Notes under the pieces: generated by a model
Databases searched by the model: none
What the model was told of the DNA's origin: nothing
Seen by the model: only the letters and a program-made list of their open reading frames with translations
In this document: positions 33,625 to 54,870 of the stretch, one piece after another
Position numbering within the stretch: the first letter of the stretch is position 1
Layout: each line of letters starts with the position of its first letter
NCBI GenBank assembly: GCA_963752595.1
Contig: CAVVYZ010000005.1
Span: forward strand, 32,001-96,000
From: an uncultured delta proteobacterium
GTDB lineage: Bacteria; Desulfobacterota; Desulfomonilia; UBA1062
Length of the DNA stretch: 64,000 bases
Direction of reading: 5' to 3'
Program-made: the position numbers and the translations under genes

Positions 33625-33672
33625 TTTTTCATACTTAAGTAGGATGAGAAAGGGATCTCTTTCCTGAATAAT
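33625..33672 (+). promoter_or_regulatory. Conserved activator box plus -10-like element (copy 1)
   Basis: TTTTTCATACTTAAGTAGGATGAGAA at 33625-33650 and AATAAT at 33667-33672. Near-identical to the box at 54822. Confidence 0.65.
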
Positions 33673-33715
33673 CTATCAACTCAGAATTCTATGAGTAAAG
33701 AGAGAGGAGACGCAC

Positions 33716-35578
33716 ATGGCTAACCTTATTATGGATGAAAGGGACCAGAAATTCGTTCTGTTCGAGATGCTCGGGGCGGAAAAACTCTGCGATGCTCCGA
33801 AGTATGCAGAGTTCTCCCGGGATATGTTTGAAATGATCCTGAGCGAGGCTCAGAAATTCGCTGTCGAAGAAGTGCTGCCTACACTGGTGGAATCCGACAA
33901 GACGGGCTGCAAGCTCATAAACGGGCAGGTCCATGTCCCGGAGTGCTTCCAGCGTCCGTACAAGCTCTTCTGCGAGGCCGGCTGGAACTGCATGTCATTT
34001 CCTCCGGAGCACGGCGGCCAGGGGCTGCCGTTTCTCATGAGGGTGGCAGCGCATGAGTGGTTCACGCACAACTTTTCTTTCATCTCCTACCCGGGTCTCG
34101 GCGAGGGTGCAGCGCACCTCATCGAATCGTACGGCACGAAAGAGCAGAAGGAAAAATATCTCCCCAACATGCTCACCGGCCAGTGGGGCGGCACCATGTG
34201 CCTGACCGAGCCCGGCGCCGGCACCGACGTGGGCAACCTGAGCACCAGGGCGATCCGTCAGCCTGACGGGACGTTCCTCATCAAGGGCACCAAGATGTTC
34301 ATCACCGGCGGCGATCACGACCTGGCGGAGAACATCATCCACCCGGTGCTCGCCCGCATCGAGGGCGACCCGGCCGGGACAAAGGGCATTTCGATCTTCC
34401 TCGTTCCCAAGTACCTCATCAATGAAGACGGCACTCCCGGCGCACGCAACGACTTCGAGATCGCCAAGATCGAGGAGAAGATGGGCATCCACGGGAGCGC
34501 AACCTGCGTCATCAATTTCGGCGACAACGGCAAATGCAAGGCCGAGCTCATGGGACAGGAACGCGAGGGCATGAAGATCATGTTCCAGATGATGAACGAA
34601 GCCCGGATCTCCACGGGGCTGCAGGGCCTCACCAGTGCGAGCATCGCGTATCTCCACGCGCTCCAGTACGCCAAGGAACGGCTTCAGGGCGCATCGCTGA
34701 TGAATTTCAACAACGCGGAAGCACCGCGCGTGGCCATCATCGAGCATCCGGATGTACGCCGCAACCTCCTGTGGATGAAGTCCAACGTCGACAGCATGCG
34801 CGCCCTCATGTATTACGCGACCATCTGCGGCGACAGGGCATTGACCGCGACCGATGAAGCTGAAATGGATAAATGGATGGGCATCTTCGAAGTGCTCACG
34901 CCTATCTGTAAGGCATACACCACGGATATCGGGTTCAGGGTCACCGAAACAGCCATGCAGGTATACGGCGGATACGGCTATTGCAGCGAGTATCCCGTGG
35001 AGCAGTTCATGCGGGATGAGAAGATCGCCAGCATCTACGAAGGCACCAACGGCATCCAGTCCCTGGACCTCGTGGGAAGGAAGCTCGGCATGAAGAAAGG
35101 CACCTACTTCATGCACATGCTCGGCGAGATGAATGCAACCGTGTCAGCAGCCAAGGGAAACCAGGCCGTCAAGGACCTTGCCGACGATGTGCAGGCAGGG
35201 ATCAATGCTTTGACCGACATGAGCCTCTATTTTGCATCCTGCGCCAAGGCCGGGAAGTTCCTCATCCCGGTGGGAAACGCGTATCCGTTCCTCATGATGA
35301 TGGGCAAGGTCATCTCTGCCTGGATGCTGCTCTGGCAGGCAGACATCGCATCCGGCAAGCTTGCCGCCCTGTGCAACGAGAAGGGCGTGGACATCGCCGA
35401 CCAGGCCGCACTGGGGAATCTTGCAAAGGATAACAAAGAGGCTGCCTTCTATGACGGCAAGCTCAAAGGCGCACGCTACTTCATCAAGAACGTGCTGCCT
35501 GAGATCGAGGGCACCATCAGGTCGATAAAGAGCGAAGATCTCTCCATAATGAACATCTCACAGGAGAGCTTTGCTTAA
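33716..35578 (+). CDS. Acyl-CoA dehydrogenase (~600-aa FadE5/DmdC-like type)
   Basis: GGTMCLTEPGAGTDVG, GTKMFITGGDHD, EEKMGIHGSATC, MMNEAR, QVYGGYGY and IYEGTNGIQSLDL. Confidence 0.92.
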   Translation: MANLIMDERDQKFVLFEMLGAEKLCDAPKYAEFSRDMFEMILSEAQKFAVEEVLPTLVESDKTGCKLINGQVHVPECFQRPYKLFCEAGWNCMSFPPEHGGQGLPFLMRVAAHEWFTHNFSFISYPGLGEGAAHLIESYGTKEQKEKYLPNMLTGQWGGTMCLTEPGAGTDVGNLSTRAIRQPDGTFLIKGTKMFITGGDHDLAENIIHPVLARIEGDPAGTKGISIFLVPKYLINEDGTPGARNDFEIAKIEEKMGIHGSATCVINFGDNGKCKAELMGQEREGMKIMFQMMNEARISTGLQGLTSASIAYLHALQYAKERLQGASLMNFNNAEAPRVAIIEHPDVRRNLLWMKSNVDSMRALMYYATICGDRALTATDEAEMDKWMGIFEVLTPICKAYTTDIGFRVTETAMQVYGGYGYCSEYPVEQFMRDEKIASIYEGTNGIQSLDLVGRKLGMKKGTYFMHMLGEMNATVSAAKGNQAVKDLADDVQAGINALTDMSLYFASCAKAGKFLIPVGNAYPFLMMMGKVISAWMLLWQADIASGKLAALCNEKGVDIADQAALGNLAKDNKEAAFYDGKLKGARYFIKNVLPEIEGTIRSIKSEDLSIMNISQESFA

Positions 35579-35621
35579 GCCCCTGAAAGGTCCTGCCGGA
35601 GCCGTTATCATAAACTGGTAA

Positions 35622-35691
35622 AGGCTGCCTCCTCTTCCTCTCCCCCCGTTTCCGGGGGAGAGGGAGGAGAGAGGATGCAGCCTAATTTTTT
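35622..35691 (+). terminator. Long hairpin terminator after the acyl-CoA dehydrogenase
   Basis: AGGCTGC..CTCTCCCCC/GGGGGAGAG..GCAGCCT followed by TTTTTT. Confidence 0.65.
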
Positions 35692-35838
35692 CAAGCACAA
35701 CAGCGCCGGATACTCGTTAATCGGGGTTAAAACCACCCCCTCATTCCCCCTTCCTTGATAAAATTCAAGCATCAGTATAAATAAATAGTGTTATATGGTA
35801 TATGATTGAAAAAAATCTGCCGGGCGGAGTATGCCTTT

Positions 35839-38628
35839 ATGATCAGCAGCGTCCTGAAAACGAAGCTTGCCATCCCGCCTGCCCAGGCCAATTGGATGAG
35901 CAGGCCCCGGTTGATAAGGCTCCTGAACTCCGGGTTGGAACACAAGCTTACCATTGTTACCGCACCCGCGGGTTTCGGAAAGACAACGCTGCTGGGCGAA
36001 TGGGCAGGGAGCCGGCGAAATATTTTTTCCTGGCTTTCTCTGGATGAGGGCGACAACGATAGTTTGCGTTTCTGGATTCATTTCATTTCATCCCTCCGGA
36101 TGCCGCGGCCGGGGCTCGGCAAGGCAGCTCTCGAAATGCTCCAGTCTTACTCTCCCTCGCAGCTTCCCGTGGAAACGTGCCTGACAACCCTGATCAATGA
36201 ACTATTTGAAGAGAACAAGACCTTTGTCATGGTTCTCGACGACTATCACCTCATCAGCAACCCAGCCATACACACCGACTTGAAGTTTCTCATCGATCAC
36301 ATCCCTCCCCGGTTCCATCTCGTCTTCTCGACCCGGGTAAAAGTCCCGTTTCCCGTCGGGCGCCTGAGAATCAAAAACCAGCTGACCGAGCTCAATGCCG
36401 ATGACTTACGCTTCACGGCCCAGGAGATATCGCTCTTCGCCAAAAAGGTGATCGGGACCAAGCTTGCCGATGCAGATATACCCGCGCTTGGCGCCTACTC
36501 AGAGGGATGGGCTGCAGGATTGCAGATCGCTGCCATCGCCATAAAAAAAGACATGCCCGGAGATGTCCCGCTGGTTTCCAAAGGTTATGAGCACATGATC
36601 GAGTATTTCATGGAAGAGGTGTTTTCCTCCCATCCTGAAAGGATCCAGACATTCCTGCTGGAAACTTCCATTCTCGAACGATTGAGCGGACCGCTGTGCG
36701 ATGCCGTCACCGGGCAGAAAGACAGCGCGGCGACACTCGAAGCGCTCTGTGCAGGAAACATGCTCATCGTTCCTCTGGACCACGAGCGCCGCGAGTACCG
36801 CTACCATGTCCTGTTTGCCGACACGCTGAAAAGCCGCCTCCGGAAACTCGATCCCGGACGCATCCGGAGCCTGCATGCCTTAGCTTCAAGGTGGTTTGTG
36901 GAGAACGACATGCCCGATGAGGGCATCCGCCATGCAATCGAGTCAGAAGACTGGGATCGGGCGGTGGATCTTGTGGACAAATACGCGGGGATCGCGCTGC
37001 TGCGGGGTGAATCGTCGACTGCTCTGCGATGGATGAAGTCGCTGCCTCCGAAGAATATCAGCTCCCACCCCGGGCTCTCCACCGGGTATGCCTGGGCGTT
37101 GTTCTTAAGCAACTTGAGGAACAGGACGGGAATACCCTATGAGGTAATCGGACAGTTCTTAAGGGATGCGGAGAAGGCCTACCTGGAGAAGAATTATGCA
37201 GCAAGGTCGTTTTCCGTGCGTGAACGCCAGGTCATCGGACATGCCAATGCACTGCGGGTATATCTGGCCTATGAACGGGGAGAACCGGCCAATAAGATCA
37301 TCGACCTGTGCAAGCGCAGCCTGACAGGCACGGAAGGAGACTTCCCCATCGTGCGGGCCGGTGTCTACAACATCCTCGGGATGACCTATATGAACATGGA
37401 CGAGCCCGAGGCCGCTGCGAGGGCACTGGAAGAAGCGAGGACCATCGGGTTCGTCGAAGGATTGTGCTTCTCGGTCGTCACGATCGACTGCTTCCGGGCG
37501 TATCTTGCAAAAATCCGCGGAAGGCTCCGGGAATCGGAATCCATGTGCCGCGAGTCTATGAAGACCATCAACGAATCCTTCATAAAGACCCGAAGGTTGC
37601 CGCCTGAGATGCTCGGGCTCATCCAGCTGGTGCTTTCCTATATCCTCATCGAGAAAAACGAACTCAAGACCGCGGACCGGATGCTCCATGAAATCATCAG
37701 GCCGATCCGGCTGCTCAAGGAGACGTTTACCGCCATATCGCACTATACACTGCTCGCCCGCACCAGACTCAGCCAGGGAGCAGACCTGAAGGATGTCTTT
37801 TCCCTGTTGACGGAAATCGGGCTCATGGAGCAGTCATGCCCCGGAGCCGGGGCGCATTCCGCTGCGCTGCGCATCCGGTTCCTGCTCCAGCGCTACCGTG
37901 ACAACCCTTCTTTCCTGGAATCCGCCTTCCGGCTGGCAGACCAGTACGGCTTTCAATTAAGCAGCCAGGCAAGGCCGTACATCAATCCTTTGGCAAAACA
38001 GTGGTATCACACGGAGCAGCTCTCCCTGGTCCGGCTCTCGCTTGCCGAGGCGGACGTGAGGCCCCGGAGCCGGTGCCGCCTCCCCCTTGAGGAGGTACTC
38101 CCTTTTCTTGAAGCAGTCTTGGCCAAGGCAGGGAAAGAAGGCTGGGGTGAGCTGGAAATCGAAGCGCTCATGCTGACCGCACTGGTGCATCATGCACGAG
38201 AGGACGAAGGACAGGCAATGGCTGCACTCGAAAGCGCCTTTTCTCTGGCCGAGCCGGAAGGATATGTACGCATCTTTGCCGAGGAAGGAGCGCCCATGGC
38301 CGGGCTGCTTCGCCAGGCAATCGCCAAGGGCATATATCCTGGTTTTGCCGCCAAGCTGCTGGAGGCCGCACAAGGGGAATCCGGAAGCGGCCGGCCTTCA
38401 TCAGCCATTCCGGATGACCTGTTCAACGCGCAGATAGAACGTTTGAGCCGGCAGGAAAACGCCATCCTCAAACTCATTGCAGACGGCCTCTCGAACCAGG
38501 AAATTGCCGATGAGCTCTGCATTGCCCTGACAACGGTCAAAACTCACAATTACAATATCTTCAGCAAGCTCAACGTAAAAAAGCGCTTCCAGGCAGTAAA
38601 AAAGGCAAAACAATTGAATCTTCTGTAA
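35839..38628 (+). CDS. MalT/AlkS-like large ATP-binding LuxR (LAL) regulator
   Basis: LKTKLAIP, APAGFGKTTL (Walker A), WLSLDEGDND, VLDDYH, EGWAAGLQ, YRYHVLF and the C-terminal LuxR HTH GLSNQEIADEL..TVKTH. Confidence 0.92.
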   Translation: MISSVLKTKLAIPPAQANWMSRPRLIRLLNSGLEHKLTIVTAPAGFGKTTLLGEWAGSRRNIFSWLSLDEGDNDSLRFWIHFISSLRMPRPGLGKAALEMLQSYSPSQLPVETCLTTLINELFEENKTFVMVLDDYHLISNPAIHTDLKFLIDHIPPRFHLVFSTRVKVPFPVGRLRIKNQLTELNADDLRFTAQEISLFAKKVIGTKLADADIPALGAYSEGWAAGLQIAAIAIKKDMPGDVPLVSKGYEHMIEYFMEEVFSSHPERIQTFLLETSILERLSGPLCDAVTGQKDSAATLEALCAGNMLIVPLDHERREYRYHVLFADTLKSRLRKLDPGRIRSLHALASRWFVENDMPDEGIRHAIESEDWDRAVDLVDKYAGIALLRGESSTALRWMKSLPPKNISSHPGLSTGYAWALFLSNLRNRTGIPYEVIGQFLRDAEKAYLEKNYAARSFSVRERQVIGHANALRVYLAYERGEPANKIIDLCKRSLTGTEGDFPIVRAGVYNILGMTYMNMDEPEAAARALEEARTIGFVEGLCFSVVTIDCFRAYLAKIRGRLRESESMCRESMKTINESFIKTRRLPPEMLGLIQLVLSYILIEKNELKTADRMLHEIIRPIRLLKETFTAISHYTLLARTRLSQGADLKDVFSLLTEIGLMEQSCPGAGAHSAALRIRFLLQRYRDNPSFLESAFRLADQYGFQLSSQARPYINPLAKQWYHTEQLSLVRLSLAEADVRPRSRCRLPLEEVLPFLEAVLAKAGKEGWGELEIEALMLTALVHHAREDEGQAMAALESAFSLAEPEGYVRIFAEEGAPMAGLLRQAIAKGIYPGFAAKLLEAAQGESGSGRPSSAIPDDLFNAQIERLSRQENAILKLIADGLSNQEIADELCIALTTVKTHNYNIFSKLNVKKRFQAVKKAKQLNLL

Positions 38629-39134: not shown

Positions 39135-40172
39135 ATGATGAGCTATGTAGTCCTGAATAAAGACCAGCTGAACAACTTCATCGTACAGCTCTCGGCAAGG
39201 CAGAAGGTGGTTGCCGCGGTCCATAAGGGGAATAACCAGTATGCATTCGAGGAGGTGCGGTCCGGGGACCGGATCTCGATCAGGTATATACCGACCATCC
39301 TGCCTCTAAAAAAGTATTTCGTGCCCCAGTATGAGACTCTGCTCGAGTATGACGTCAGGGAAGTCCCGAAGACCAAGGTGGTCGTGGAGTACGAGCCTCT
39401 GGTGCTGTTCGGGGTCCATACCTGCGACCTGGCAGGGATCCAGTGCCTGAACATCGTCCTTTCGGACAGGCCCAAGGACCTGCACTACCTGTTCCGGAAG
39501 AACAAGCTGATCATCATGGGCCTGGAATGCAACGATTACTGCGACGGCTATGCCAGCTGCTCACTGATGGGCAACCATCTGCCCTTCGGCGGATACGACC
39601 TGTTCTTTACCGAGCTCGACGAGTCGTTCATCATCCATGTTCAGACAAAGACAGGCGATGATCTCATAGAACAAATGGATTTCATCAGGAAGGCTGAGCC
39701 GTCCCACATGAACGCCCTCGAAGAGGTCCGGGCCCGCAAGAGGGAGATCTTCAGAAACGAGGTGGATCTGGAGCGGGATGAAATACCAATTCTGTTCGAC
39801 AAAGGCTTCGACCATCCCGTGTGGAAAGAGATCGGGGAGCGCTGCCTTTCCTGCGGAAACTGCACCAATGTCTGCCCCACCTGCTACTGCTTCGATGTCA
39901 TGGACATCCCGAACCTCGATCTTACCACAGGCAGGAGGGTCAGGGTCTGGGATTCCTGCCAGAACGAGCCATTTGCCAAGATAGCCAGCGGAGAGAGCTT
40001 CCGGGCCGAGAGGAGCGACCGGCTGCGCCACCGCTTCTACCGGAAGTTCAAGTACCACAACCAGCGGTTCAATCGGTATTACTGCACCGGATGCGGGAGA
40101 TGCACCCGCACTTGTATGGCAAAGATCAATCTCAAGGAAACCATTACCGCGCTGAAGAAGGTGCCGCTATGA
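39135..40172 (+). CDS. Group 3b hydrogenase iron-sulfur (beta, AsrA-like) subunit
   Basis: FGVHTCDL, CLSCGNCTNVCPTCYCF, WDSC and CTGCGRCTRTC. Confidence 0.88.
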   Translation: MMSYVVLNKDQLNNFIVQLSARQKVVAAVHKGNNQYAFEEVRSGDRISIRYIPTILPLKKYFVPQYETLLEYDVREVPKTKVVVEYEPLVLFGVHTCDLAGIQCLNIVLSDRPKDLHYLFRKNKLIIMGLECNDYCDGYASCSLMGNHLPFGGYDLFFTELDESFIIHVQTKTGDDLIEQMDFIRKAEPSHMNALEEVRARKREIFRNEVDLERDEIPILFDKGFDHPVWKEIGERCLSCGNCTNVCPTCYCFDVMDIPNLDLTTGRRVRVWDSCQNEPFAKIASGESFRAERSDRLRHRFYRKFKYHNQRFNRYYCTGCGRCTRTCMAKINLKETITALKKVPL

Positions 40173-41011
40173 GCAGGGAGAAGGTGATCATCAGGAATTC
40201 TTCCTATGAGATAAAGCCTGCCGGGATCGTCCGGAAAAGGGTGCTCACGGACAAGGAACAGCTGTTCGAGATAGCGTTCGACAGCGGAGAGCTCCTCGAC
40301 CACGAGCCGGGCCAGTTCGTCGAGGTGTCCATCCCCGGGGCCGGAGAAGCCCCGATCTCCGTCTGCTCCTCGCCCACGCTGCAGGGGAGCTTTGAGCTCT
40401 GCGTGAGGAAGATCGGCAAGGTGACCACTGTCCTGCACCACCTGGAGGTGGGCGACGAGATCGGCATCAGGGGGCCGTTCGGCAAGGGCTTCCCGGTCAG
40501 CATCCTCGAAGGTAACGACCTCCTGATGATAGCGGGCGGCCTCGGGCTGGCCCCGCTGCGCTCGCTCATCAATTACGTCATGGACAACCGCCGCGACTTC
40601 GGTCATGTTTCCATCCTGCTGGGCTGCAATACGCCAGGGAGCATCCTGTTCGGCGACGAGGTCGAAGCCTGGGGCGAGCGCACCGATGTCAGCTTCGAGT
40701 GCACGGTGGACAGGGCCGAACCCGACTGGAAGGGGCATGTTGGGGTGATAACCACGCTGATACCGGGTATCAGCCTCGACCCCCACTATACCTTCGGCAT
40801 CATCGTCGGCCCGCCGGTGATGTACAAGTTCGTGATAAAAGAGCTGCTCGGCAAGGGCGTTCCCGAGGACCAAATCCTGGTGTCCCTGGAGAGGCACATG
40901 AAGTGCGGCCTGGGCAAGTGCGGCCACTGCCAGATCCATAATATCTACTGCTGCCAGGACGGGCCTGTCTTCCGCTACAGCCGGATAAAAAACTTGCGGG
41001 GTGCTATCTGA
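40169..41011 (+). CDS. Group 3b hydrogenase FAD/NAD(P)-binding (gamma) subunit
   Basis: PGQF..GEAPISVCS, RGPFGKGF, AGGLGLAPLRS and LERHMKCGLGKCGHC..CQDGPVF. Confidence 0.88.
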   Translation: MSREKVIIRNSSYEIKPAGIVRKRVLTDKEQLFEIAFDSGELLDHEPGQFVEVSIPGAGEAPISVCSSPTLQGSFELCVRKIGKVTTVLHHLEVGDEIGIRGPFGKGFPVSILEGNDLLMIAGGLGLAPLRSLINYVMDNRRDFGHVSILLGCNTPGSILFGDEVEAWGERTDVSFECTVDRAEPDWKGHVGVITTLIPGISLDPHYTFGIIVGPPVMYKFVIKELLGKGVPEDQILVSLERHMKCGLGKCGHCQIHNIYCCQDGPVFRYSRIKNLRGAI

Positions 41012-41764
41012 ATGGAAAAACCGAAGACCGCCTTCTTCGATTTTGCCTGCTGTGAAGGGTGCCAGCTTCAGGTGGCCAATCTGGGGGAGACTCTCCTGGA
41101 TCTGCTGGGCTCCATCGAGCTGGTCGAGTTCCGCGAGGCGATGTCCGAGAAATGGGACAAAAACTATGACATCGCCGTCATCGAGGGGAGCATTACCACC
41201 CCGCATGCCGCAGAGCGGATACGCAGGATCAGGGAGCGATCAAGGATTCTGATTGCGTACGGATCGTGCGCGACCATAGGCGGGGTAAACGGGATCAAGA
41301 ACTCGTTTGACCTGGATGAGATACGCCAATACGTCTATACCCATGATTACCGGTTCTATCCCTCGGAAAAGACCAGGGCCGTGCATCAAACGGTGCAGGT
41401 GGATTATTTCGTGACCGGCTGCCCGGTGTATCCGCCCGAGTTCCTCGAGGTGCTGAAGGCTGTCCTCCTGGGCATCCCGTACCATGTGCCGGATAAAGCC
41501 GTGTGCGTCGAATGCAAGCTCAACGAGAATATCTGCATGTACGACCGCGGGGTCACCTGCCTGGGCCCGGTAACCAGGGCCGGGTGCAACTCCTGGTGCA
41601 TAAATAACGGGAACATCTGCTACGGATGCAGGGGCATGGTTTCCAACCCCGCCGAGAACGCCATGAAGCAGGTGATCGAGATGTACCGGATCCCCCTGGA
41701 TCTGATCATCAGGAAAATGGACATGTACAACAAATGCAGAGAGATCGACGAACATGGATCATAA
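41012..41764 (+). CDS. [NiFe]-hydrogenase small (delta) subunit
   Basis: FACCEGCQ, IEGSI, GSCATIGG, GCPV, VCVECK and CLGPVTRAGC..CYGCRG. Confidence 0.9.
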   Translation: MEKPKTAFFDFACCEGCQLQVANLGETLLDLLGSIELVEFREAMSEKWDKNYDIAVIEGSITTPHAAERIRRIRERSRILIAYGSCATIGGVNGIKNSFDLDEIRQYVYTHDYRFYPSEKTRAVHQTVQVDYFVTGCPVYPPEFLEVLKAVLLGIPYHVPDKAVCVECKLNENICMYDRGVTCLGPVTRAGCNSWCINNGNICYGCRGMVSNPAENAMKQVIEMYRIPLDLIIRKMDMYNKCREIDEHGS

Positions 41765-43082: not shown

Positions 43083-43084
43083 TC

Positions 43085-43639
43085 ATGGAGCTGTCTAACG
43101 AGGTGGAAAAGGCGCTTTCCCCATCAAAAACCGGAAAGACCATCTATGTCCTTACAGGGAATACGCTACGGGGAGATGACGGCGTCGGGCCTTACATTGC
43201 AGGCAGACTTGGGTCGGATGAATCACCCGGCAGGGAACTGCGAGATATCAAAAACAAAGGCAAGGAATATAGCGAGCTGCGAAGAATGAACCCGGCCGAG
43301 ATTCAAAAGTGCTCAGTCATTCTCGATGCAGGCGAACGGCCCGAGGTCTTCATCGACCGGATCATCCGGGAAAGACCGTCGAAGACGATCTTCATAGATG
43401 CCGCAGATTTTTATGGTGAAGCCGGCGAAGTACGTGTACTCCCTTCAAGCACCCTGGATGATTCCTCCATGAGCACCCACCGCTTTCCGCTCAGTGCCGT
43501 GGCGCGAATTATCCAAGAGGATACCAGGGCCGAAGTGATCATTGTCGGAATCCAGATCCGTACGGTTCATTTCGGCAGTCAGATGGATCGACGTATAGAA
43601 GCGAGTGCCGAGAAAATCATCGAATTGCTTCTGCCTTGA
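43085..43639 (+). CDS. Hydrogenase maturation protease (HycI-like)
   Basis: GNTLRGDDGVGP, DAGERPE, FIDAADF and STHRFPL. Confidence 0.88.
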   Translation: MELSNEVEKALSPSKTGKTIYVLTGNTLRGDDGVGPYIAGRLGSDESPGRELRDIKNKGKEYSELRRMNPAEIQKCSVILDAGERPEVFIDRIIRERPSKTIFIDAADFYGEAGEVRVLPSSTLDDSSMSTHRFPLSAVARIIQEDTRAEVIIVGIQIRTVHFGSQMDRRIEASAEKIIELLLP

Positions 43640-43709
43640 TGTTTCTTAAGCCCTTCATATACATTCGGATTGTTAAAATTGACAAACAGATTGAATCATT
43701 TCTTAGGGA

Positions 43710-44774: not shown

Positions 44775-44782
44775 ATTTTGCC

Positions 44783-44888
44783 TTGCCTTTTATGACCAGC
44801 GGTCATATTATTGCTTGAACGACCCTGGATCACTTTCCAGAGAACAATGAAGGCGGGTTTTTACTGCATTTAAATTGACCGGAGGTCA
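44783..44888 (+). promoter_or_regulatory. Sigma70-like promoter with two TGACC-N3-GGTCA operators
   Basis: TTGCCT (44783)-17 bp-TATTAT (44806). TATGACCAGCGGTCATA at 44791-44807 and TGACCGGAGGTCA at 44876-44888. Confidence 0.7.
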
Positions 44889-44908
44889 TTAAAGAAAGGA
44901 GAGCCTCG

Positions 44909-46876
44909 ATGAAAGCAACGTGGGATATCCCGGAAGTGATGCTGGATAATCGAAACGATTTCCTGAACGATTTCTATCAGCGCTTTACCCTCCGCAAGGC
45001 GCGGCAGCCCCTGAAAATGACCGAAGAGTTGACCAAGGATTATCTGTTCCCCACATTCTACGGTGATGTGTCCTGCGCTATGGCAGTGTTCATGTGCTCC
45101 TATGATAAAGCTGCAGCCTTGGTGAGCGAGCAGCTGAGCCCTCAGATCGTTCCCGTGAGAATGCCCAGGGGGCGTGCCCTGGCAGCCTTCTCCTGCTACG
45201 AGTATAAAAAGGTCATGGGGGTACGGCCGTACAACGAGATTGCCATTGCTATCCCGATCATGGTCGATCCGGACTGCAATATCCCTGTCCTTCCCATGGT
45301 CACCAATTCCTTCAGCCGGTTCGGATACTATATTGCCGGGATGCCGGTTACCTCGAAAGAAAACACGATCCGGGGCAGGAAGATCTGGGGCCTGCCCAAG
45401 GTGACTCAGGATATCGATATCTATCACGAAGCAGGGAATTGCATAGTAAAGGCAATGGATGAGAGCGGAGATGTGTACCTGTCGCTGCGCATCCCCATGC
45501 AGGGCACGCCTACCGAGTTCGATGTCACTTCCTACCTGTATACGCAGCTTGGGGGAAAGTTGCTCCAGAACCGGACAGACTTCAAAGCTTCTTTCAATGT
45601 AAAGAAAAACATGCAGCTTCTCTTGAAAAAGAACGAGAGGCCGGACCATCCTTACATCGAGCTGGGCAGCACCTCCTTTGCCCCGCTGCTCAAAAGGCTC
45701 GAGATAGAAGAAACTCCCTTCCAGACACGCTATGCCGAGCATATGTCATCCTGCTTCGACCTACCCAACGAGCAGGCGCCCAGCTGGGCTCAGACCATTC
45801 ATGTAAGCGGCTATACACTGGATGATGAAGCCGGCATGAAGCTTGAATCCAAAGATATGAAGATCGCTTTTTTCGGGGCCGGTTCCATCGGCGCTTCTGT
45901 AGGCGGCTGGGTCGCTCCCTTCCACGAAGAGACCTACTTCATCGATCAGGGGAAAATTCTCGATGCACTGAAATCGAGCGGTATAACGCTCTATCAGGGG
46001 GATAAGAAAAAAGAGACGACAGCGCATGTTCCGGTCAAGATAATTGAAGACATCTCGGATCTGAAGTCCATGGATGTAGTCGTTGTCGGTGTGAAGAACT
46101 TCAGCCTCGAATCGGTTGCCGGGCTGATCAAAGCCAATTCGAAAGAAGATGTGATCATCGTATCCATGGCCAACGGGATAGATAATCAGTCGATCCTGCC
46201 CAAGTACTTTTCTAAGGTGATCTACTGCATCGTCAGCTACAATGCATGGATGGACCATCCGGTAACCGTGGGATACCAGAAGCGGGGGCCGCTCGTCCTG
46301 GGAACGCCCGACAACAGCCTGCTGACCGAAATGAACACCATTGCCGAGATCTTCAGCCAAGGCGTGGAGACCGTGGTTACCGATCATTTCCAGGATGCAG
46401 TACACTCGAAGATCGTGGTGAACCTTACCAACCCCGTGACAACTCTGGTGGGCCATGGGTTCAGGGAAATCTCGGATTTCGATACCTTTCAGAAAATCCT
46501 CAGCAATACGCTGTACGAAGGAGTACGGATCGTTCATGCTGCCGGGTTCAAGGAGTGCAAGCTTGGCGGCATGCCTCCGTGGTTCCTCCTGAAGGCGTCC
46601 GCCCTTCTCCCGAGGTCTCTCACCAGGCCATTGTTCAGAAAGAATGTGGCAAAGATGGTCATGTCCAGCATGAGCCAGGATATCATTCAGCGCGGGGGAA
46701 CTGACTCCGAGCTCGATTCACTGACCGGGTATATCCTTAAGCTTGCCGGGCAGAACAGAATAAAAGCGCCGTATAACGAAACCATCTACGAGCTCGGGAA
46801 AGAGCTCTTCAGCAAGCCGGGCTTTTCCCCTATGGATGTGCGGGATGTATGGGCAAAGATACAGCAGAAGCTGTGA
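44909..46876 (+). CDS. Fusion of an acetoacetate decarboxylase-superfamily domain and a ketopantoate reductase (PanE/ApbA)-like domain
   Basis: N-terminal part: PYNEIAI..MPVT..GRKIWGLPK. C-terminal part: FFGAGSIG, MANGI, SKIVVNL and SSMSQDI..SELDSLTG..APYNE. Confidence 0.82.
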   Translation: MKATWDIPEVMLDNRNDFLNDFYQRFTLRKARQPLKMTEELTKDYLFPTFYGDVSCAMAVFMCSYDKAAALVSEQLSPQIVPVRMPRGRALAAFSCYEYKKVMGVRPYNEIAIAIPIMVDPDCNIPVLPMVTNSFSRFGYYIAGMPVTSKENTIRGRKIWGLPKVTQDIDIYHEAGNCIVKAMDESGDVYLSLRIPMQGTPTEFDVTSYLYTQLGGKLLQNRTDFKASFNVKKNMQLLLKKNERPDHPYIELGSTSFAPLLKRLEIEETPFQTRYAEHMSSCFDLPNEQAPSWAQTIHVSGYTLDDEAGMKLESKDMKIAFFGAGSIGASVGGWVAPFHEETYFIDQGKILDALKSSGITLYQGDKKKETTAHVPVKIIEDISDLKSMDVVVVGVKNFSLESVAGLIKANSKEDVIIVSMANGIDNQSILPKYFSKVIYCIVSYNAWMDHPVTVGYQKRGPLVLGTPDNSLLTEMNTIAEIFSQGVETVVTDHFQDAVHSKIVVNLTNPVTTLVGHGFREISDFDTFQKILSNTLYEGVRIVHAAGFKECKLGGMPPWFLLKASALLPRSLTRPLFRKNVAKMVMSSMSQDIIQRGGTDSELDSLTGYILKLAGQNRIKAPYNETIYELGKELFSKPGFSPMDVRDVWAKIQQKL

Positions 46877-47093: not shown

Positions 47094-47870
47094 TCAATCG
47101 TCCATGAGGTTTCTCGGCCCGTAGAGGATGGCCTCCATCAGTGGCATGTACTGGAAGAAGAGCGGCTTTTCGCTCAGTTCCAAATCTTTAAGCTGCAGGG
47201 CGATGCTGTGTTTGTCGCCGAGGCTGAGCTGCGCTGCGCTTCCGCTCATGCTTTTGCCGAACTCGAGGGGATTCATGTAAATGTTCGCTGCCAGCGGAAC
47301 GCCGTCTTTCACTGAATAGGTCTTGAACCTGTTCACCTTCTCCTGGGATGTTTTCAGCTTTTTGCCTTTGAGCGTGAGGATCTTTTCCCCGCCTTCGGAA
47401 AGCGTGCAGGCCGGCATGGAGCCTTCATGGGAGAAAGCGATGTCTGCGAGGAACTTGGGATATCCGTACATCTCGACACCGCCTTTGCGTGCCCGTTCGG
47501 TGGTTACGGGAAGCTGCCAGACATATGCCGAAAAGTATCTCCGCGCCATCATACTCAACACGGTGAGACCCGGTATGGCTTTTTTGCGGAAAGTTATGGG
47601 GAAAGAGATGGAAAATTCGTTATAGGGGTCGATGTCTGTCCTGCGGTACTCGAAGGCCGTAAACGCGACCAGCGCCCTGCCTTTCCAGACCTCAACCGGG
47701 TGCATGTCAGGCAGGGGAAGATGTCTCCGGACTTTCTCGACAGGGGCGGTGAAGATAGCCGTCATGGCCGTGTTGTCATAGTAGAATACGGGGAGCTTGC
47801 CCTCGAGAGACAGATCCTTTGTCATCATATCCCACTGAACAACGCCTTTGAAAAAATCTCCTTTTTTCAT
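47094..47870 (-). CDS. Acetoacetate decarboxylase-superfamily protein
   Basis: AFEYRRTDIDPYNEFSI and LPVTTERARKGGVEMYGYPKFLA. Confidence 0.85.
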   Translation of the reverse strand: MKKGDFFKGVVQWDMMTKDLSLEGKLPVFYYDNTAMTAIFTAPVEKVRRHLPLPDMHPVEVWKGRALVAFTAFEYRRTDIDPYNEFSISFPITFRKKAIPGLTVLSMMARRYFSAYVWQLPVTTERARKGGVEMYGYPKFLADIAFSHEGSMPACTLSEGGEKILTLKGKKLKTSQEKVNRFKTYSVKDGVPLAANIYMNPLEFGKSMSGSAAQLSLGDKHSIALQLKDLELSEKPLFFQYMPLMEAILYGPRNLMDD

Positions 47871-47951
47871 ACATCCTCCTCGATTATTTTCATGGATACT
47901 GTTCTTTTTTGAGCTTCCCGCTACAGGCATGGCCTGCTCAGGTTTTTCCTC

Positions 47952-48794
47952 TCAATCCTTCTTCTCTGCGTAAGTCCTCGCAACATACCTGCTGAACAGG
48001 CCGCTTAAGCTGACTGCGGTTACGGGGAAGAACCTCGTGAGCAGGTCAAGGACCTTTGCATCGGTGCCTATCAGGATGCGCCTCCTGTTCCGCTTGATCC
48101 CTGCAATGATGATCTTTGCAGCATCATCCGCGGTTGTCCTGAAAAGCTCGTCCTCGTAGAGCCTCTGGGCCTTCTCCTTGGACAGCGAGTACATTGCCCG
48201 GTTCACGCGGGCGTTCTTTGCGATGTTGGTCTTGATCCCTCCTGGATGCACGCAACTCACCCGGATATTCGTACCGTGCATCTCCTGGGCAAGGGTTTCC
48301 GTGTATCCCTTGACCGCAAACTTTGCAGAGCAGTAGGGGCCGTTATTGGGATTGGGCATGATCCCGTTGATGCTGGAGACGTTGACGATGTGGCCTTCCG
48401 GCTGCTTCTTCAAGTAGGGAAGGAATGCCATGGTGCCGTGCACGACGCCCCAGAAGTCGATGCCCATGAGCCACTCGAAGTCTTCCAGCGGAACGGTTTC
48501 CAGGAAATCGCCCAGGGCGACTCCTGCATTGTTTATGACCATATCTATGCCGCCGTGGTTCCGGGCAGCCTCTTCGGCAAAGCCGAATACCTGGTCTCGC
48601 TTCGACACATCCACGATATGGGTCGAAACATTCACCCCTGCGCCGACGAGCGCGGTTGTCTCCTGCAGCCCTGCCCCGTCGATATCCGCAAGGGCAAGGT
48701 TGCATCCTTCGTCTGCAAGATTGACGGCAAGCATCCTGCCGATACCCGAAGCAGCACCTGTGACCGCCGCAGTCTTATTTTTCAAAATCTTCAT
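47952..48794 (-). CDS. Short-chain dehydrogenase/reductase
   Basis: TGAASGIG, NNAG, YCSAK and HPGGIKTNI. Confidence 0.92.
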   Translation of the reverse strand: MKILKNKTAAVTGAASGIGRMLAVNLADEGCNLALADIDGAGLQETTALVGAGVNVSTHIVDVSKRDQVFGFAEEAARNHGGIDMVINNAGVALGDFLETVPLEDFEWLMGIDFWGVVHGTMAFLPYLKKQPEGHIVNVSSINGIMPNPNNGPYCSAKFAVKGYTETLAQEMHGTNIRVSCVHPGGIKTNIAKNARVNRAMYSLSKEKAQRLYEDELFRTTADDAAKIIIAGIKRNRRRILIGTDAKVLDLLTRFFPVTAVSLSGLFSRYVARTYAEKKD

Positions 48795-48818
48795 GATCGT
48801 CTTTTCCTCCGGTGTGTA

Positions 48819-49958
48819 CTACCTGCCGCTTCCGGCAAGGCCTGCAAGATCCCGTATCAAGTCGAGCTTCTTCATGGGTGAGCTGCCGAGCAGTGCCTGC
48901 ACCTGCCGGGCATCACGGAAGCGCTTCTCCTGTCCGTAGTCCTTCATATAGCCATTGCCTCCCAGAACCTGCACACCGTCGGTGACTGCCTCGCAGGCCA
49001 GCTCATGAACATGGAGACCGGCCGCGATACAGTGAGAGCCCCATGCTTTCCCTTCCTGCTCAAGGGCCAGGCAGGCCTGGGCAACGCACATCTCAGCCAC
49101 GTCGGCCTTGATTGCCATGCCGGCAAGCAGCATGCTCACCTCGCTCCACTGAATGATCTCGCGTCCGCCCTGGGAGCGCTCTTTCGAGTATGCCAGCGCT
49201 TCGCCCAGCGAGCCCTTCATGATGGCTGAGTTCATGGCTGCCGCAGCCACGTGCATCTTCATGGAGGCCTGCTTGAAATAGTCCCTGCCTTTGCCCTTTT
49301 CCCCGATGAGCTGTGTCTCAACTCCCTGGAGGGTGACATCTATGGCAGGGCATGCGTGCATCCCAAGGCTGAAGATGGGATCGCTCTTCGAAAGTCCTTT
49401 GTCCGAGAGATCGACCAGAAAAAATGAATAGGAGCCTCCCGTGCCGGTGCGGGCCGGGATAATCGCCTTCTGCGCCAGGCCTCCCAGCACGAGGAATTCG
49501 AGCTTGCCGGTCAACGCATAGCCTTTGCCCGACTTGGTAGCGCTGGGGATTTTATCCGTGTGGGAGGGGTCGGTGTAGGACGGGAACGCGACCAGGAATT
49601 CCCGTGCGGTTGACGCCTTGGGAAAGATGTCTCCTGCGAGCCCGTCTGCCTTTGCCGCAAGCAGGATCTCCTGAGCCAGGGCATTGGTGAATACTATCCC
49701 GCCCAGAGAGCTGTCGGCCCGACAGATGTTGTCGAGGATGACGCACAGTGTGCTTATGCTCCCGCCGATGCCGCCGAGCCCCTCGGGAAGCATGACTCCA
49801 AGGAACCCCACTTCGTAGGCCTTGTTCAGGACGTCTTCGAAGAAATCACCAAAGGGGTAGCGGTCGTTTTCCTCGGTCTTTTTTGCGAGCTCTCTGGCCG
49901 CAAAGGACTGCGCCAGCTCTTCAAAGGGTTTCAGATCGCTTTTGAATGAGGTCAGCAT
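48819..49958 (-). CDS. Acyl-CoA dehydrogenase-like protein with degenerate catalytic motifs
   Basis: ACAD fold motifs (PEGLGG, ALAYSKERSQGG, VQVLGGNGYMKDYGQEKRFRDA), but no TEPxxGSD and no YEG. Confidence 0.82.
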   Translation of the reverse strand: MLTSFKSDLKPFEELAQSFAARELAKKTEENDRYPFGDFFEDVLNKAYEVGFLGVMLPEGLGGIGGSISTLCVILDNICRADSSLGGIVFTNALAQEILLAAKADGLAGDIFPKASTAREFLVAFPSYTDPSHTDKIPSATKSGKGYALTGKLEFLVLGGLAQKAIIPARTGTGGSYSFFLVDLSDKGLSKSDPIFSLGMHACPAIDVTLQGVETQLIGEKGKGRDYFKQASMKMHVAAAAMNSAIMKGSLGEALAYSKERSQGGREIIQWSEVSMLLAGMAIKADVAEMCVAQACLALEQEGKAWGSHCIAAGLHVHELACEAVTDGVQVLGGNGYMKDYGQEKRFRDARQVQALLGSSPMKKLDLIRDLAGLAGSGR

Positions 49959-49976
49959 TGGTTCCTCCTTGTATGA

Positions 49977-51506
49977 TTAGTCTTCAAAGACGTTTGCCTG
50001 CGGCACCTGGGGTGCGATAAGGCACTTGAAAGTATTGAGCCGGTTGAGCTGGTTGGTGCCCTCGTAGATCTGCAGAAGCTTGATGTCGCGGAGCATCTTC
50101 TCTACCCCGGCATCCTGACGCAACCCCGTAGAGCCCATGAGTTCGATGGCCATCTGGCAGTTGTGTACGCCGATGTCCGTGCCGGCGAATTTCGCCAGAG
50201 AAGCCCAGCCCGAGCAGCACAGCTGGTCCTGAGGCTTTGCCCAGTCATAGTAGAGCTTCCGCATGAACTTTCCGGAAGATTCCGTATCAAGGGTCGGCGC
50301 GACCACTTTATCGAAGTAGGCCTGGGGCATGAGACGGAAGTAATAGTAGAGGGGCTTGAGCTGGAGGAGCCTGTACATGCCGCGAAGGCTGTTGGCGTAG
50401 TTCGCTTCCACATAGGCGAGCCTTCCCAGTGCGACGTTCTTGTACATCTCGGCAAGCAGGCATTGCACCCACTCGCTTTTTACGAGGAGCTTACCGTTTA
50501 CCGTAGTCGTCGATGCATAGTTCAGAGCTGCCTCAAAGGCTCCCCGTGCGACGCCGACCCCGAAGGCGCATACGCCGGGACGCGTTGCCGAAACCACGTA
50601 GTCGATGTAGCGCTGGGAGAGGTCCTTCATGGGCTTTTTCGAGATCTTCTTCATCAGATCCGCACTGAAGAGCACCTGGTCGTCCGGGATGAAGCAGTCT
50701 TCGAAGATGAGCACGCTGGCAGGGCATACCCGCTGGCCCATCTTGTTTTCATGGGTACCGAAGGAAAAGCCCTTGGTGCCTGTCTTTACCATCATGCCCA
50801 CGCCCGACACAGAAGGCTTCTTGAGGTCGGAATATGCAAGGAGTACGGTCCAGGTCGACACGTGCCCCATGGAGATGAATACCTTGGTGCCGTTGACGAT
50901 ATAGCCGCCATTGACCTTCTTTGCATGGCAGCTGACCTTGCCCTTGTCTACGAGATCCACCTCTTCCACATCGGTTCCCGCACCGGGCTCGGTGGTGGCA
51001 AGGGCAATGAGACAGGGCTTGCCGGTCTTCTCACCTTCCACGACCTCGCTGATGACCTTTTTTGCCAGGGCCGGGTTGGCCGAAGCGATCAGCCCTGCCA
51101 CGCCGAGGTAGTGGACGCCGATGACGTTCATGATCCCGACACAGACAGAACTGACTTCTTCGGCAAAATAAGACATGGAAGGCATGCTGCTCCCCTTGCC
51201 TCCGAACATCCTGGGTATCCACTTGGTGTAGAAGCCCCATTTATTGGCGATGTCGACGAGCTCCAGGGGCATGTAATCAGGGTCTTCGTGGGTCTTCCGG
51301 TCGAGTTCGAGGGCCCTGGGCCTTGCCACTTCTTCATTGAACTTGCGGGCAAGGGCAATGACCTCCTGTATCTCCTTGATCATGTGCTTCGGCATGCGCG
51401 GGGCATACGGCAGGCTCAAATGGATGTCCTCGAACTTCGGAAAACGGGACAGTCTGGCCGATACTTCAGATCTGGACAGCATATTACCCTCCTCTTTGTC
51501 GGTCAT
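49977..51506 (-). CDS. Acyl-CoA dehydrogenase (extended)
   Basis: ATTEPGAGTDV, NGTKVFISMG, ENKMGQR and EKMLRDIKLLQIYEGTNQLNR. Confidence 0.88.
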   Translation of the reverse strand: MTDKEEGNMLSRSEVSARLSRFPKFEDIHLSLPYAPRMPKHMIKEIQEVIALARKFNEEVARPRALELDRKTHEDPDYMPLELVDIANKWGFYTKWIPRMFGGKGSSMPSMSYFAEEVSSVCVGIMNVIGVHYLGVAGLIASANPALAKKVISEVVEGEKTGKPCLIALATTEPGAGTDVEEVDLVDKGKVSCHAKKVNGGYIVNGTKVFISMGHVSTWTVLLAYSDLKKPSVSGVGMMVKTGTKGFSFGTHENKMGQRVCPASVLIFEDCFIPDDQVLFSADLMKKISKKPMKDLSQRYIDYVVSATRPGVCAFGVGVARGAFEAALNYASTTTVNGKLLVKSEWVQCLLAEMYKNVALGRLAYVEANYANSLRGMYRLLQLKPLYYYFRLMPQAYFDKVVAPTLDTESSGKFMRKLYYDWAKPQDQLCCSGWASLAKFAGTDIGVHNCQMAIELMGSTGLRQDAGVEKMLRDIKLLQIYEGTNQLNRLNTFKCLIAPQVPQANVFED

Positions 51507-51577
51507 TTCCTAAAAACGGCGGTGAGGCCGGTTGTAAACAAATATTTCAATATTTTAAGGCGTTGTCTTCATCCCCG

Positions 51578-52252
51578 TCATCTCCCGCCATCCGGGAGCA
51601 TGGGAACGATCATGTCGCCGATTTCGGCCCTGCCCATATCCGTCAGATACATGGAGACCATGGAATGTGTAAGGGCCATGAGATTGTCGATGGCTTCGTC
51701 CCGGGTAAACCGGCGGTCCACCAGATAGCTTAAGGCCACATGCAGGCACATGCCTATGATAATGTGCCCCAAGAGCGCGCCGTTTACGTCTTTCAGGAAG
51801 CCCAATTCTTCCCACTTGCGGAAATCTTCTTCGATATCGGATGCGAAGCCCTGAAAAAATTTCCAGAGGACGATATCCTGCTCTTCATCCACACCGAAGC
51901 CGCCGCGCAGGATCAGGAGGACCTGATCCGGGTTCGCCTCCACATAGTCGAAGAAAGCGGCATACGCCGGTCTCCACTGCTGAATGCGTTCGCGGGCGTC
52001 GCCGGGCTTCCTGGTCCGGCTCAGATCTTTGAGCTTTGCCCTTAAGCTTTCGAGCGTCTCGCGGGTGATCTGCTCGAACAGGTCCCGCTTATCCTTGAAA
52101 TGAGTGTAGATGCTTCCCGTGGATATGCCTGCAGCCTTGACGATATCCGCAATCCGGGCCTTGTGATACCCCTTTTCGCTGAATACCTTGATGGCAGCCT
52201 GGAATATCATCTCCCGTGTCTCGGCCTTGCGCGCCTCCAATGGATTCGACAT
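51578..52252 (-). CDS. TetR/AcrR family regulator
   Basis: AAIKVFSEKGYHKARIADIVKAAGISTGSIYTHFKDK. Confidence 0.92.
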   Translation of the reverse strand: MSNPLEARKAETREMIFQAAIKVFSEKGYHKARIADIVKAAGISTGSIYTHFKDKRDLFEQITRETLESLRAKLKDLSRTRKPGDARERIQQWRPAYAAFFDYVEANPDQVLLILRGGFGVDEEQDIVLWKFFQGFASDIEEDFRKWEELGFLKDVNGALLGHIIIGMCLHVALSYLVDRRFTRDEAIDNLMALTHSMVSMYLTDMGRAEIGDMIVPMLPDGGR

Positions 52253-53056: not shown

Positions 53057-53098
53057 AGGTTGCCTCCAGTAGTTTTATTGACTGTGGAAAGACTCAAG

Positions 53099-53113: not shown

Positions 53114-53312
53114 AGTTGGAAACGGTAATGATACTGCAAAAATAGAGGATTGATCAGCTGAGAAGAACGACAGTTTCGTCGAAAATCGTACAATTTTTGT
53201 AATTTGACTTTGTTGAATATGCGGGACGGGGCCTTATGTTCTATATAGACCCGGTTTCGCTCATAACGGGCATCTCCAGCCGGCATGCCCTTAAAATATC
53301 CAAGGAGGCTTT

Positions 53313-54398
53313 ATGAACTCAGGGGATGATAAGCTTCATCCATCAGGAATCGGAACGGGCATGGATCGGACTGAGAATGTACCCATGCCGACATGGGTGG
53401 ATGTCGCACTGACACGGCGAGAATTTCTCGAAGCTGCTGCAACCGCTGCCTTTGTTGCAGGCGTAGGCGGGCCTGCATGGAGTGCCGTTACAAAGGGCTC
53501 GATCCCGTACCGTACATTGGGGCGTACAGGCGAGAAGGTCTCCATAGTCGGATTGGGAGGCGCTCACCTTGGGGTACAGGACGATGAACAGGAAAGCGTC
53601 CGCATCATCCGTACTGCACTCGACAGCGGGATCAATTTCCTCGACAACTCCTGGGACTATAACAGCGGCAGGAGCGAGATCCGCATGGGCAAAGCCTTGC
53701 TCGACGGATACCGGCAGAAAGCGTTCCTCATGACCAAGATAGACGGCAGAACCAGGAAGGAAGCTGCTCGCCAGCTCGAAGAATCGCTCCAAAGGCTCCG
53801 GACCGATCACATCGACCTCCTGCAGTTCCATGAGATAATCCGTATGGAGGATCCGGACCGCATCTTCGCACAAGGAGGTGCACTGGAGGCAGTACTGGAA
53901 GCTCGGCAGGCGGGGAAAGTCCGGTATATCGGCTTTACCGGGCATAAGAGCCCGGATATCCACCTGAAAATGCTTCAGACAGCCTCCCGGAACAATTTCC
54001 GTTTCGATGCCGTGCAGATGCCGCTCAACCTGATGGATGCCCATTACAACAGTTTTGGGAAAAAAGTCCTGCCGGTTCTCGTGAAGGAAGGGATAGGCGT
54101 TCTCGGCATGAAGCCCATGGGCGATAAGATCATTCTGGAGAGCAAGACCGTGACGCCCATCGAGTGCCTGCACTATGCGATGAACCTGCCGACCAGCGTC
54201 GTGATTACCGGCTGCGACTCGTGGCCGATCCTGCAGCAGGCACTGGATGCCGCAAGAAGCTTCCGGCCCATGGATTCCGGTGCGGTAGATACGCTCCTGA
54301 GGAAAACCGCACATGCTGCTGAGAATGGTCGGTTCGAGCTCTACAAGACATCCCGCACCTTCGACAGCACCCACAGGAATCCCGAATGGCTCGGATAA
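53313..54398 (+). CDS. Aldo/keto reductase with a twin-arginine-like signal
   Basis: LTRREFLEAAA, YRTLGRTGEKVS, GINFLDNSWDY, ESLQRLRTDHIDLLQFH and GKVRYIGFTGH. Confidence 0.88.
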   Translation: MNSGDDKLHPSGIGTGMDRTENVPMPTWVDVALTRREFLEAAATAAFVAGVGGPAWSAVTKGSIPYRTLGRTGEKVSIVGLGGAHLGVQDDEQESVRIIRTALDSGINFLDNSWDYNSGRSEIRMGKALLDGYRQKAFLMTKIDGRTRKEAARQLEESLQRLRTDHIDLLQFHEIIRMEDPDRIFAQGGALEAVLEARQAGKVRYIGFTGHKSPDIHLKMLQTASRNNFRFDAVQMPLNLMDAHYNSFGKKVLPVLVKEGIGVLGMKPMGDKIILESKTVTPIECLHYAMNLPTSVVITGCDSWPILQQALDAARSFRPMDSGAVDTLLRKTAHAAENGRFELYKTSRTFDSTHRNPEWLG

Positions 54399-54459
54399 TT
54401 TGACACTTCCGGCACCGGATACTATTAAAGAATCATTCACCATCTTGGGAGGTTTGGCA

Positions 54460-54645
54460 ATGAACATCATATCAGAAAAAGAAGAAACAAAAAAAGCCAT
54501 CAGATGGATTTCGGAGCACCTGGAAGAGAATCCCGACCAGCCGGTGAGGAAGCTCATAGACAAGGCTATTTTTGAATTCAATCTTTCCCCTGCCCATGCG
54601 GAATTCCTGACACGCTTTTTCCATGAGCGGGCAGCAGGAAAGTAG
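54460..54645 (+). CDS. Small hypothetical protein (61 aa)
   Basis: GGAGG RBS. The KKAIRWISE..LIDKA..FNLSP..EFL pattern resembles small deltaproteobacterial proteins (recollection only). Confidence 0.65.
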   Translation: MNIISEKEETKKAIRWISEHLEENPDQPVRKLIDKAIFEFNLSPAHAEFLTRFFHERAAGK

Positions 54646-54821
54646 CTGCCGGAAGATTAGCGGGCCCGGACGGTTTTCCTTTGCATACTTACCCAGGGTA
54701 GAAGGGCGTCAAAGGGTATTCTGAGGAATTCCAGACTGCCCTCCCCGCTCATACGCCCGGTATACCAGGGTCTCCCTCCTGACCGGTCCATGAAAAATCT
54801 CTCTTCGTTTTAAATTCATCC

Positions 54822-54870
54822 TTTTTCATACCTTAGTATGATGAAAAGTGGTGTCTTATAATAGTATAAT
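54822..54870 (+). promoter_or_regulatory. Conserved activator box plus TATAAT (copy 2)
   Basis: TTTTTCATACCTTAGTATGATGAAAA at 54822-54847 and TATAAT at 54865-54870. Confidence 0.68.

Follow-up and report, generated by a model that had tools for sequence, protein, structure and literature searches.

Which protein, if any, reads a 26-bp box that stands before two sets of beta-oxidation genes is the question raised by a 64,000-nucleotide stretch of DNA from an uncultured delta proteobacterium of the phylum Desulfobacterota (contig CAVVYZ010000005.1, positions 32,001 to 96,000; below, the window). One copy of the box precedes an acyl-CoA dehydrogenase (ACAD) gene, the other a ligase-thiolase-hydratase-dehydrogenase operon, and next to the ACAD gene lies the gene for a MalT-like STAND regulator (LAL). 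Sequence comparison indicates that LAL is very probably the protein that binds the box, and that it probably activates both promoters. We refer to the window's genome (4.12 Mb, 31 contigs) as G000 and to its closest relative as G004. The elements concerned are:

33625..33650, + strand: box 1, 26 bp, with a 16-bp palindromic core at 33629-33644 and a T-tract on the left
33667..33672, + strand: predicted -10 hexamer AATAAT of box 1, 22 bp past the core (box offset 42), kept in G004
33716..35578, + strand: ACAD, 620 aa, assigned by Pfam and below the NCBIfam cut-offs; predicted target of box 1
35839..38628, + strand: LAL, 929 aa, with Walker A/B, TPR_MalT and a LuxR/GerE helix-turn-helix (HTH); predicted binder
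54822..54847, + strand: box 2, 26 bp, with its palindromic core at 54826-54841
54865..54870, + strand: predicted -10 hexamer TATAAT of box 2, 23 bp past the core (offset 43), TATAAA in G004
54928..56970, + strand: long-chain acyl-CoA ligase-like gene, the first after box 2
57008..58183, + strand: thiolase; close orthologues (79-82%) lie directly behind LAL and a box in two other relatives, G001 and G010
58278..59045, + strand: enoyl-CoA hydratase, frameshifted in the assembly; 256 aa and intact in relatives
59068..60207, + strand: 3-hydroxyacyl-CoA dehydrogenase (HADH), frameshifted in the assembly; 379 aa and intact in G004

Two promoters share a palindromic box

The preliminary description of the window reported two 26-mers that match at 22 of 26 positions, and a letter-by-letter comparison verified both these and the AATAAT and TATAAT hexamers at offsets of 42 and 43 bp. 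The palindrome it gave, CATAC-N4-GTAKG, is present and extends one base further on each side, giving a 16-bp core (TCATAC-N4-GTAKGA) with a T tract to its left. Box 2 is also followed by alternative -10 hexamers, a second TATAAT at 54857-54862 (offset 35) and TAGTAT at 54862-54867. The distance from box 1 to the ACAD start is 91 bp and that from box 2 to the ligase start 106 bp. The stated lack of a clear -35 is roughly right, in that only weak hexamers, ATGAGA at box 1 and ATGAAA at box 2, overlap the right ends of the boxes.

The word TTCATCC does occur upstream of both boxes (33603-33609 and 54815-54821), at unequal distances from them; the first copy falls in a stretch absent from G004 and the second reads otherwise there. 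As neither copy is conserved, we rejected them as extra MalT boxes. Upstream of each gene set there is a single inverted pair of half-sites and not a series of direct-repeat MalT boxes.

The two boxes form a unique pair in G000. A scan of the 31 contigs gave no third site at up to five mismatches, the next best sites having 6-7. Among 2,473 upstream regions of 150 bp each, a 26-mer was shared at up to four mismatches by 148 of 3,056,628 pairs, an upper bound on chance because repeats and overlapping frames were kept in. A symmetric matrix scored the boxes at 29.4 and 28.6 bits and the following sites at 22.2, 20.5, 20.0 and 19.0; 12 permuted matrices reach scores like these lower ones, one of them likewise giving two hits above 24, and the neighbours of the lower-scoring sites, where seen, are not lipid genes. 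Further members in G000 were rejected on these scores, and the regulon there is two promoters.

The box accompanies LAL within the genus

LAL is encoded in four of the 12 genomes of the genus: G000, G004 (84% identity), G010 (61%) and G001 (53%). All four carry a box at the LAL locus, in degenerate form in G010, and the box pattern was not found, at up to two mismatches, in the eight LAL-negative genomes. The genomes are related and partly incomplete, and this co-occurrence is to be read as a pattern rather than a statistic. A 20-base pattern built from the genus sites was scanned at up to two mismatches in 41 genomes. Its exact occurrence in G000, G004 and G001 is circular, because the pattern was derived from these three; at two mismatches it gave three hits (G001, G016 and G036), compared with 16 for the reversed control.

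Box 1 is identical in G004 at all 26 positions and lies in an invariant block of 28 bp, to the left of which the sequences are unrelated; box 2 has three changes there, all outside the core, which is identical. G001 has one box between LAL and a divergent, different ACAD (46%) and another before a thiolase-hydratase-dehydrogenase set; its third site, with one mismatch, precedes an aquaporin-family gene and has no -10 at 22-23 bp. The degenerate box of G010 (7/26 mismatches) lies between LAL and thiolase. The boxes of two further records, L038 and L039, are the same as those of G004 and G001 and were not counted apart; L038, a Syntrophaceae bacterium, holds the closest named relative of LAL (84%).

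The genes behind the boxes are more widespread than the boxes. A box precedes ACAD in G000 and G004 only, among 30 loci examined, and the ligase in the same two genomes only, among 15; a box directly upstream of thiolase was found in G001 and G010, among 8 loci. The genes can be present where the box is missing: LAL-negative genomes keep orthologous ACAD and ligase genes under other promoters. Six such ACAD orthologues (81-83%) have no box and instead a TTGACA-type promoter with another conserved word. The simplest history, as far as these sequences tell it, would be that an older regulator-box-thiolase unit captured ACAD and the ligase in the line of G000 and G004. In the LAL-negative loci (L174-L179) the conserved word, near ATATTGTCATACAAT, stands just downstream of the conserved TTGACA promoter and is likely the operator of another regulator.

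Outside the genus the box often adjoins LuxR genes with the same helix

The C-terminal HTH of LAL (GerE, 63.2 bits) has the helix TVKTH. An exact scan of metagenome contigs for the box gave 115 stretches, with long flanks for 80 and 83 distinct 40-base contexts. At 63 of the 115 the end of a LuxR-HTH gene lies no more than 150 bp from the box, and every one of these 63 genes encodes the helix T[VI]KTH; a profile made from seven other G000 HTH proteins, LAL left out, gave the same number. When the frames of G000 were compared with a profile of 42 box-adjacent HTH domains (orthologues excluded), LAL ranked first with 82.9 bits and the next frame scored 48.3.

Variants of the box accompany similar genes elsewhere. 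Two Anaerolineae loci (L046 and L047, helix T[VI]KTHNYNIF) have six variant boxes around MalT-like HTH genes. In G193, a genome from another family of the phylum, the 210 kb examined (C28:146000-356000; L257-L267) contain 14 MalT-like genes, interspersed with SDR genes, and more lie on other contigs; the genome has three perfect TCATMC-N4-GKATGA boxes, and matches at up to one mismatch number 14, compared with 6 for the reversed control.

No exact match to the box was found in 400 other genomes of the phylum, where one-mismatch hits numbered 11 (24 for the reversed control), none of the 11 with a LuxR gene within 1.5 kb. With one pattern, no convincing box was seen at four plasmid MalT-like genes (33-40%) of Acaryochloris, Chroococcidiopsis, Deinococcus and Chlorohelix, and there is no box at the LALs of G015 and G019 (36-38%).

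The box keeps a fixed distance from a -10-like element

A hexamer of the form.A...T occurs 22 or 23 bp past the core at 12 of 13 sites (6 of 7 in the genus and 6 of 6 LuxR-adjacent sites in Anaerolineae), compared with 52 of 429 background positions; the seventh genus site has TATAAA at 23 bp. Each of the six Anaerolineae variant boxes is followed after 22-23 bp by TAnnnT. At the Bacteroidota loci nAnnTTTG stands 22 bp past the second half-site in 36 of 41 contexts, and the -7 consensus of Bacteroidota is TAnnTTTG. In E. coli malP, CAAACT, which we take to be the -10, lies 22 bp past GGATGA.

The half-site GTAKGA differs by one mismatch from the MalT core, given as GGA(T/G)GA (PMC7567727), and lies 22-23 bp before the predicted -10, as expected of a MalT box ending at about -35. 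By analogy with the malP and Actinoplanes sites, this spacing would put the palindrome centres in the window near -42.5 and -43.5.

LAL as the probable activator and the alternatives

The preliminary description proposed the neighbouring LAL as binder of the box. This reading, here with activation from near -42, gains support from the co-occurrence in the genus, the adjacency of T[VI]KTH genes in unrelated taxa, the fixed spacing, and the exclusion of three rival regulators; the alternatives are considered in turn.

LAL might bind the box as a repressor over the weak -35 and be released by its ligand. The combinations ATGAGA-17-AATAAT and ATGAAA-18-TATAAT do score as sigma-70 promoters overlapping the boxes, a layout that a repressor also fits, and a LAL-family repressor has reportedly been described in Streptomyces. 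The -35-like hexamer, however, consists of letters of the box itself and is altered in relatives (ATGAGG), whereas the spacing of 22-23 bp, typical of activators, is fixed in three phyla. MalT, Actinoplanes MalT and AlkS, as described in the sources cited below, activate from this position, and we regard repression by LAL as improbable.

Somewhat less probable still is binding by a NarL-type response regulator encoded elsewhere in the genome. The motif of lactococcal CesR, TCAGHCTnnAGDCTGA, has the same 16-bp layout as the box (PMC4447274), the closest PDB matches to the HTH of LAL are LiaR and VraR, and a kinase-regulator pair lies just behind HADH in G004. Seven box-negative genomes nevertheless carry 76-84% orthologues of the regulator of that pair, the one response regulator that we traced across the genus, and no match to it exceeds 43% in G001 or G010. 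The five response-regulator HTHs of G000 scored 38-48 bits against the box-adjacent profile that LAL leads, and they lack TVKTH.

Proteins of the TetR type have palindromic binding sites and are frequent regulators of fatty-acid genes, and one of the two TetR genes of the window (44181-44774 and 51578-52252) could encode a FadR-like repressor of the box; the second lies 2.6 kb from box 2. Its orthologues of 64-71% are nevertheless in five box-negative genomes, the best match in box-positive G001 being 47%. The first TetR is present in four box-negative genomes, and none turned up in G004 or G010, which have the box. Since the motif adjoins LuxR genes in other lineages as well, a TetR binder is very unlikely. 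Least probable of all is that the boxes are functionless remnants of a recent promoter duplication or repeat. There are only two boxes, with 21 kb between them, and compared with G004 the region contains insertions; but box 1 is unchanged in G004 despite its unrelated left flank, and in G001 and G010, with LALs of 53-61% identity, the box recurs before other genes.

Several observations weigh against LAL as activator of a beta-oxidation regulon. Within the genus, the evidence comes from four related genomes, with the pattern derived from three, and the G010 site was missed by the patterns. The targets differ between relatives (the G004 operon is without thiolase, and G001 and G010 have other sets), and the complete beta-oxidation cycle that the preliminary description saw is confined to this genome. 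In the window two of the five genes of the set, hydratase and HADH, are frameshifted. Five more distant, incomplete Desulfobacterales/Desulfobacteraceae genomes have LALs of 41-43% and a near-identical helix, yet none of the five has a match at one mismatch, and none has a box beside its LAL gene. The helix alone thus does not fix the box. Among the 115 metagenome loci, 52 have no LuxR gene in the flanks seen (27 of 58 among loci of at least 2 kb), and about 53 of the 63 loci with one represent a single group, in which a LuxR protein of 150-180 aa typical of Bacteroidota is followed by DUF4199; a further eight have a 479-aa LuxR protein with a weak MFS-like N-terminus, one has a close LAL orthologue and one is unassigned. 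At Alcanivorax alkB2, homology with a known operator proved no guarantee of function (PMC8784404).

LAL compared with known systems

LAL has the signatures of a NOD ATPase of the STAND type (Walker A GFGKT, Walker B DDYH) and a TPR-type sensor (Pfam TPR_MalT, 110.9 bits; cut-off 45), and it aligns to the MalT structure 8bob with an E value of 5.8e-49. Identity to E. coli MalT is 28% in the first 483 aa and 34% at the C-terminal end; by BLASTP the sensors do not align. Its score lies below the NCBIfam MalT equivalog cut-off (361.5 vs 537 bits), and its predicted targets are genes of lipid catabolism, not maltodextrin genes. The AlkS system also fits poorly, there being no box before LAL in G000 or G004 and no monooxygenase among the targets. 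Judged by its sequence, LAL is a member of the MalT-like STAND family and neither MalT proper nor part of an AlkS system.

E. coli MalT shares with LAL the NOD-sensor-HTH layout, the T[VI]KTH helix, a half-site one base off and, at malP, the 22-bp spacing. It differs in reading direct repeats and in sensing maltotriose. Its oligomerisation and activation depend on ligand and ATP (PMC10427625), which is predicted for LAL as well. AlkS of Pseudomonas putida GPo1, a LuxR/MalT activator of hydrocarbon catabolism, acts on an inverted repeat adjoining the -35 (PMC8784404); it differs from LAL in its 20-bp repeat, its aerobic alkane genes and a box before its own gene, and is set apart here by description, not by sequence. 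The MalT-like ACSP50_3915 of Actinoplanes sp. SE50/110 recognises TCATCC-5-GGATGA, whose 3' end lies 34.4 +/- 1.0 nt before 17 start sites, and its activation was demonstrated by deletion and overexpression (PMC7567727). Like LAL, it is a MalT-like LuxR regulator inside its own target cluster with a palindrome of MalT-box-like hexamers; the spacer (5 vs 4), the half-site (GGATGA vs GTAKGA), the number of promoters (17 vs 2) and the targets, which are not lipid catabolism, differ. By this analogy of architecture and motif, the Actinoplanes regulator is a closer known counterpart of LAL than AlkS.

The operators of LiaR, CesR and VraR resemble the box in being 16-bp inverted repeats laid out as TCA..C....G..TGA and flanked on one side by an A/T tract. 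The K and T of the LAL helix align with LiaR K177 and T178, which contact DNA (PMC4482077), whereas LiaR K174 is T in LAL. These three regulators are two-component proteins switched by phosphorylation and reading other inner bases; LAL has no receiver domain. A literature search, which lay outside most subscription journals and RegPrecise, listed nothing on a beta-oxidation regulon of the MalT-like type or on LuxR-DUF4199.

Proposed mechanism and significance

By analogy with MalT (PMC10427625), a ligand would bind the TPR sensor of LAL, ADP would be exchanged for ATP, and LAL would then oligomerise. Two LuxR HTH domains, one per GTAKGA half-site, would contact the DNA and bring in sigma-70 polymerase, and LAL, centred near -42, would stand in for a strong -35 at the ACAD and ligase-thiolase-hydratase-HADH promoters. 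The ligand may equally well be or not be a long-chain fatty acid, its CoA ester or an alcohol, a guess prompted by the targets and by the SCP2, alcohol dehydrogenase and aldehyde:ferredoxin oxidoreductase genes nearby. A mechanism of this type is already known from MalT, Actinoplanes MalT and AlkS.

A broader proposal, for which we see about even chances, is that the T[VI]KTH clade of LuxR HTH domains carries a portable operator across phyla, a 16-bp palindrome near TCATAC-N4-GTATGA with its right half 22-23 bp before a -10 or Bacteroidota -7. The sensors to which the module would have become joined are dissimilar: in LAL a STAND ATPase, in the LuxR proteins of the Bacteroidota LuxR-DUF4199 pairs a short hydrophobic N-terminus, and in a third group a membrane domain resembling MFS. 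In the anaerobic lineage of the window the module would have captured housekeeping beta-oxidation genes by promoter replacement, making a ligand-activated STAND switch for fat breakdown.

Fat breakdown is usually controlled by repressors of the FadR/TetR type, and LAL, a candidate activator of beta-oxidation, contrasts with these. The analysis pairs an uncharacterised STAND regulator of an uncultured anaerobe with a short operator and two promoters; the box and its spacing also give predicted targets for many unstudied LuxR-type regulators, such as that of the Bacteroidota LuxR-DUF4199 loci. If the ligand is a long-chain lipid, LAL and its box would be a candidate anaerobic lipid biosensor.

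Behind a small LuxR gene, the Bacteroidota-type loci (L060, L062, L069, L074, L112 and about 50 alike) have a full box, then, some 31 bp further, a half box, and after another 22 bp a -7 word; the next gene is DUF4199, once DUF6223. From this arrangement the LuxR-DUF4199 pair, uncharacterised, is predicted to be an activator and its target. At loci of the 479-aa type (L059, L065, L067, L116 and L119) the box lies 70-120 bp past the stop of the LuxR gene. In two of the five distant genomes (Desulfobacteraceae, L040 and L044) LAL is divergent from a ligase gene with a canonical TTGACA-17-GATAAT promoter and a conserved word downstream.

Frameshifts and neighbouring genes

The frameshifts in hydratase and HADH are likelier to come from assembly error than from recent decay. 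In the alignment with G004, 21 gap openings fall in the 1,979 columns of this stretch, while ACAD and LAL have 0 and the ligase 1. The mismatches of the stretch by codon position (65, 34, 197) are distributed as in intact genes (ligase 59, 39, 177). Other G000 genes are likewise split by frameshifts relative to G004 (C14:130066-131926 and C17:161514-167044), and the assembly seems indel-prone in patches. Short contigs from four DNA runs of one study, which cover the operon in short pieces, show insertions or deletions at several of these positions too; they also disagree with the window at many further letters and may come from relatives.

Two further features adjoin box 1 and LAL:

29339..33379, - strand: divergent cluster of aldehyde:ferredoxin oxidoreductase (AFOR), SCP2, iron alcohol dehydrogenase (Fe-ADH) and SCP2 genes, sharing the intergenic gap with box 1
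35622..35692, + strand: GC-rich hairpin with a T run (fold -46.7 kcal/mol), a likely terminator between the ACAD and LAL genes

The hairpin has a counterpart in G004 (-34.9 kcal/mol); a terminator scan did not call the G000 copy. Autoregulation of LAL through the box was rejected on the hairpin after ACAD and the lack of a box before the LAL gene. Leftward control of the AFOR cluster by box 1 was rejected as well, since neither G000 nor G004 has a -10 at 22-23 bp to the left of the box. A block conserved in G004 (33440-33530) lies upstream of the AFOR cluster, contains the AT-rich palindrome ATAATATATTAT, and is probably a separate promoter and operator.

Two gene groups lie between LAL and box 2. 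A TetR - two ACADs - SDR - acetoacetate-decarboxylase-like cluster (47094-52252), without a box, is kept in G004. Between LAL and the acetoacetate-decarboxylase-like gene, a block at 39135-46537 comprises a NiFe hydrogenase (sulfhydrogenase-like) operon, a maturation protease, a TetR gene and two unassigned open reading frames; in G004 a PAAR-domain open reading frame takes the place of this block.

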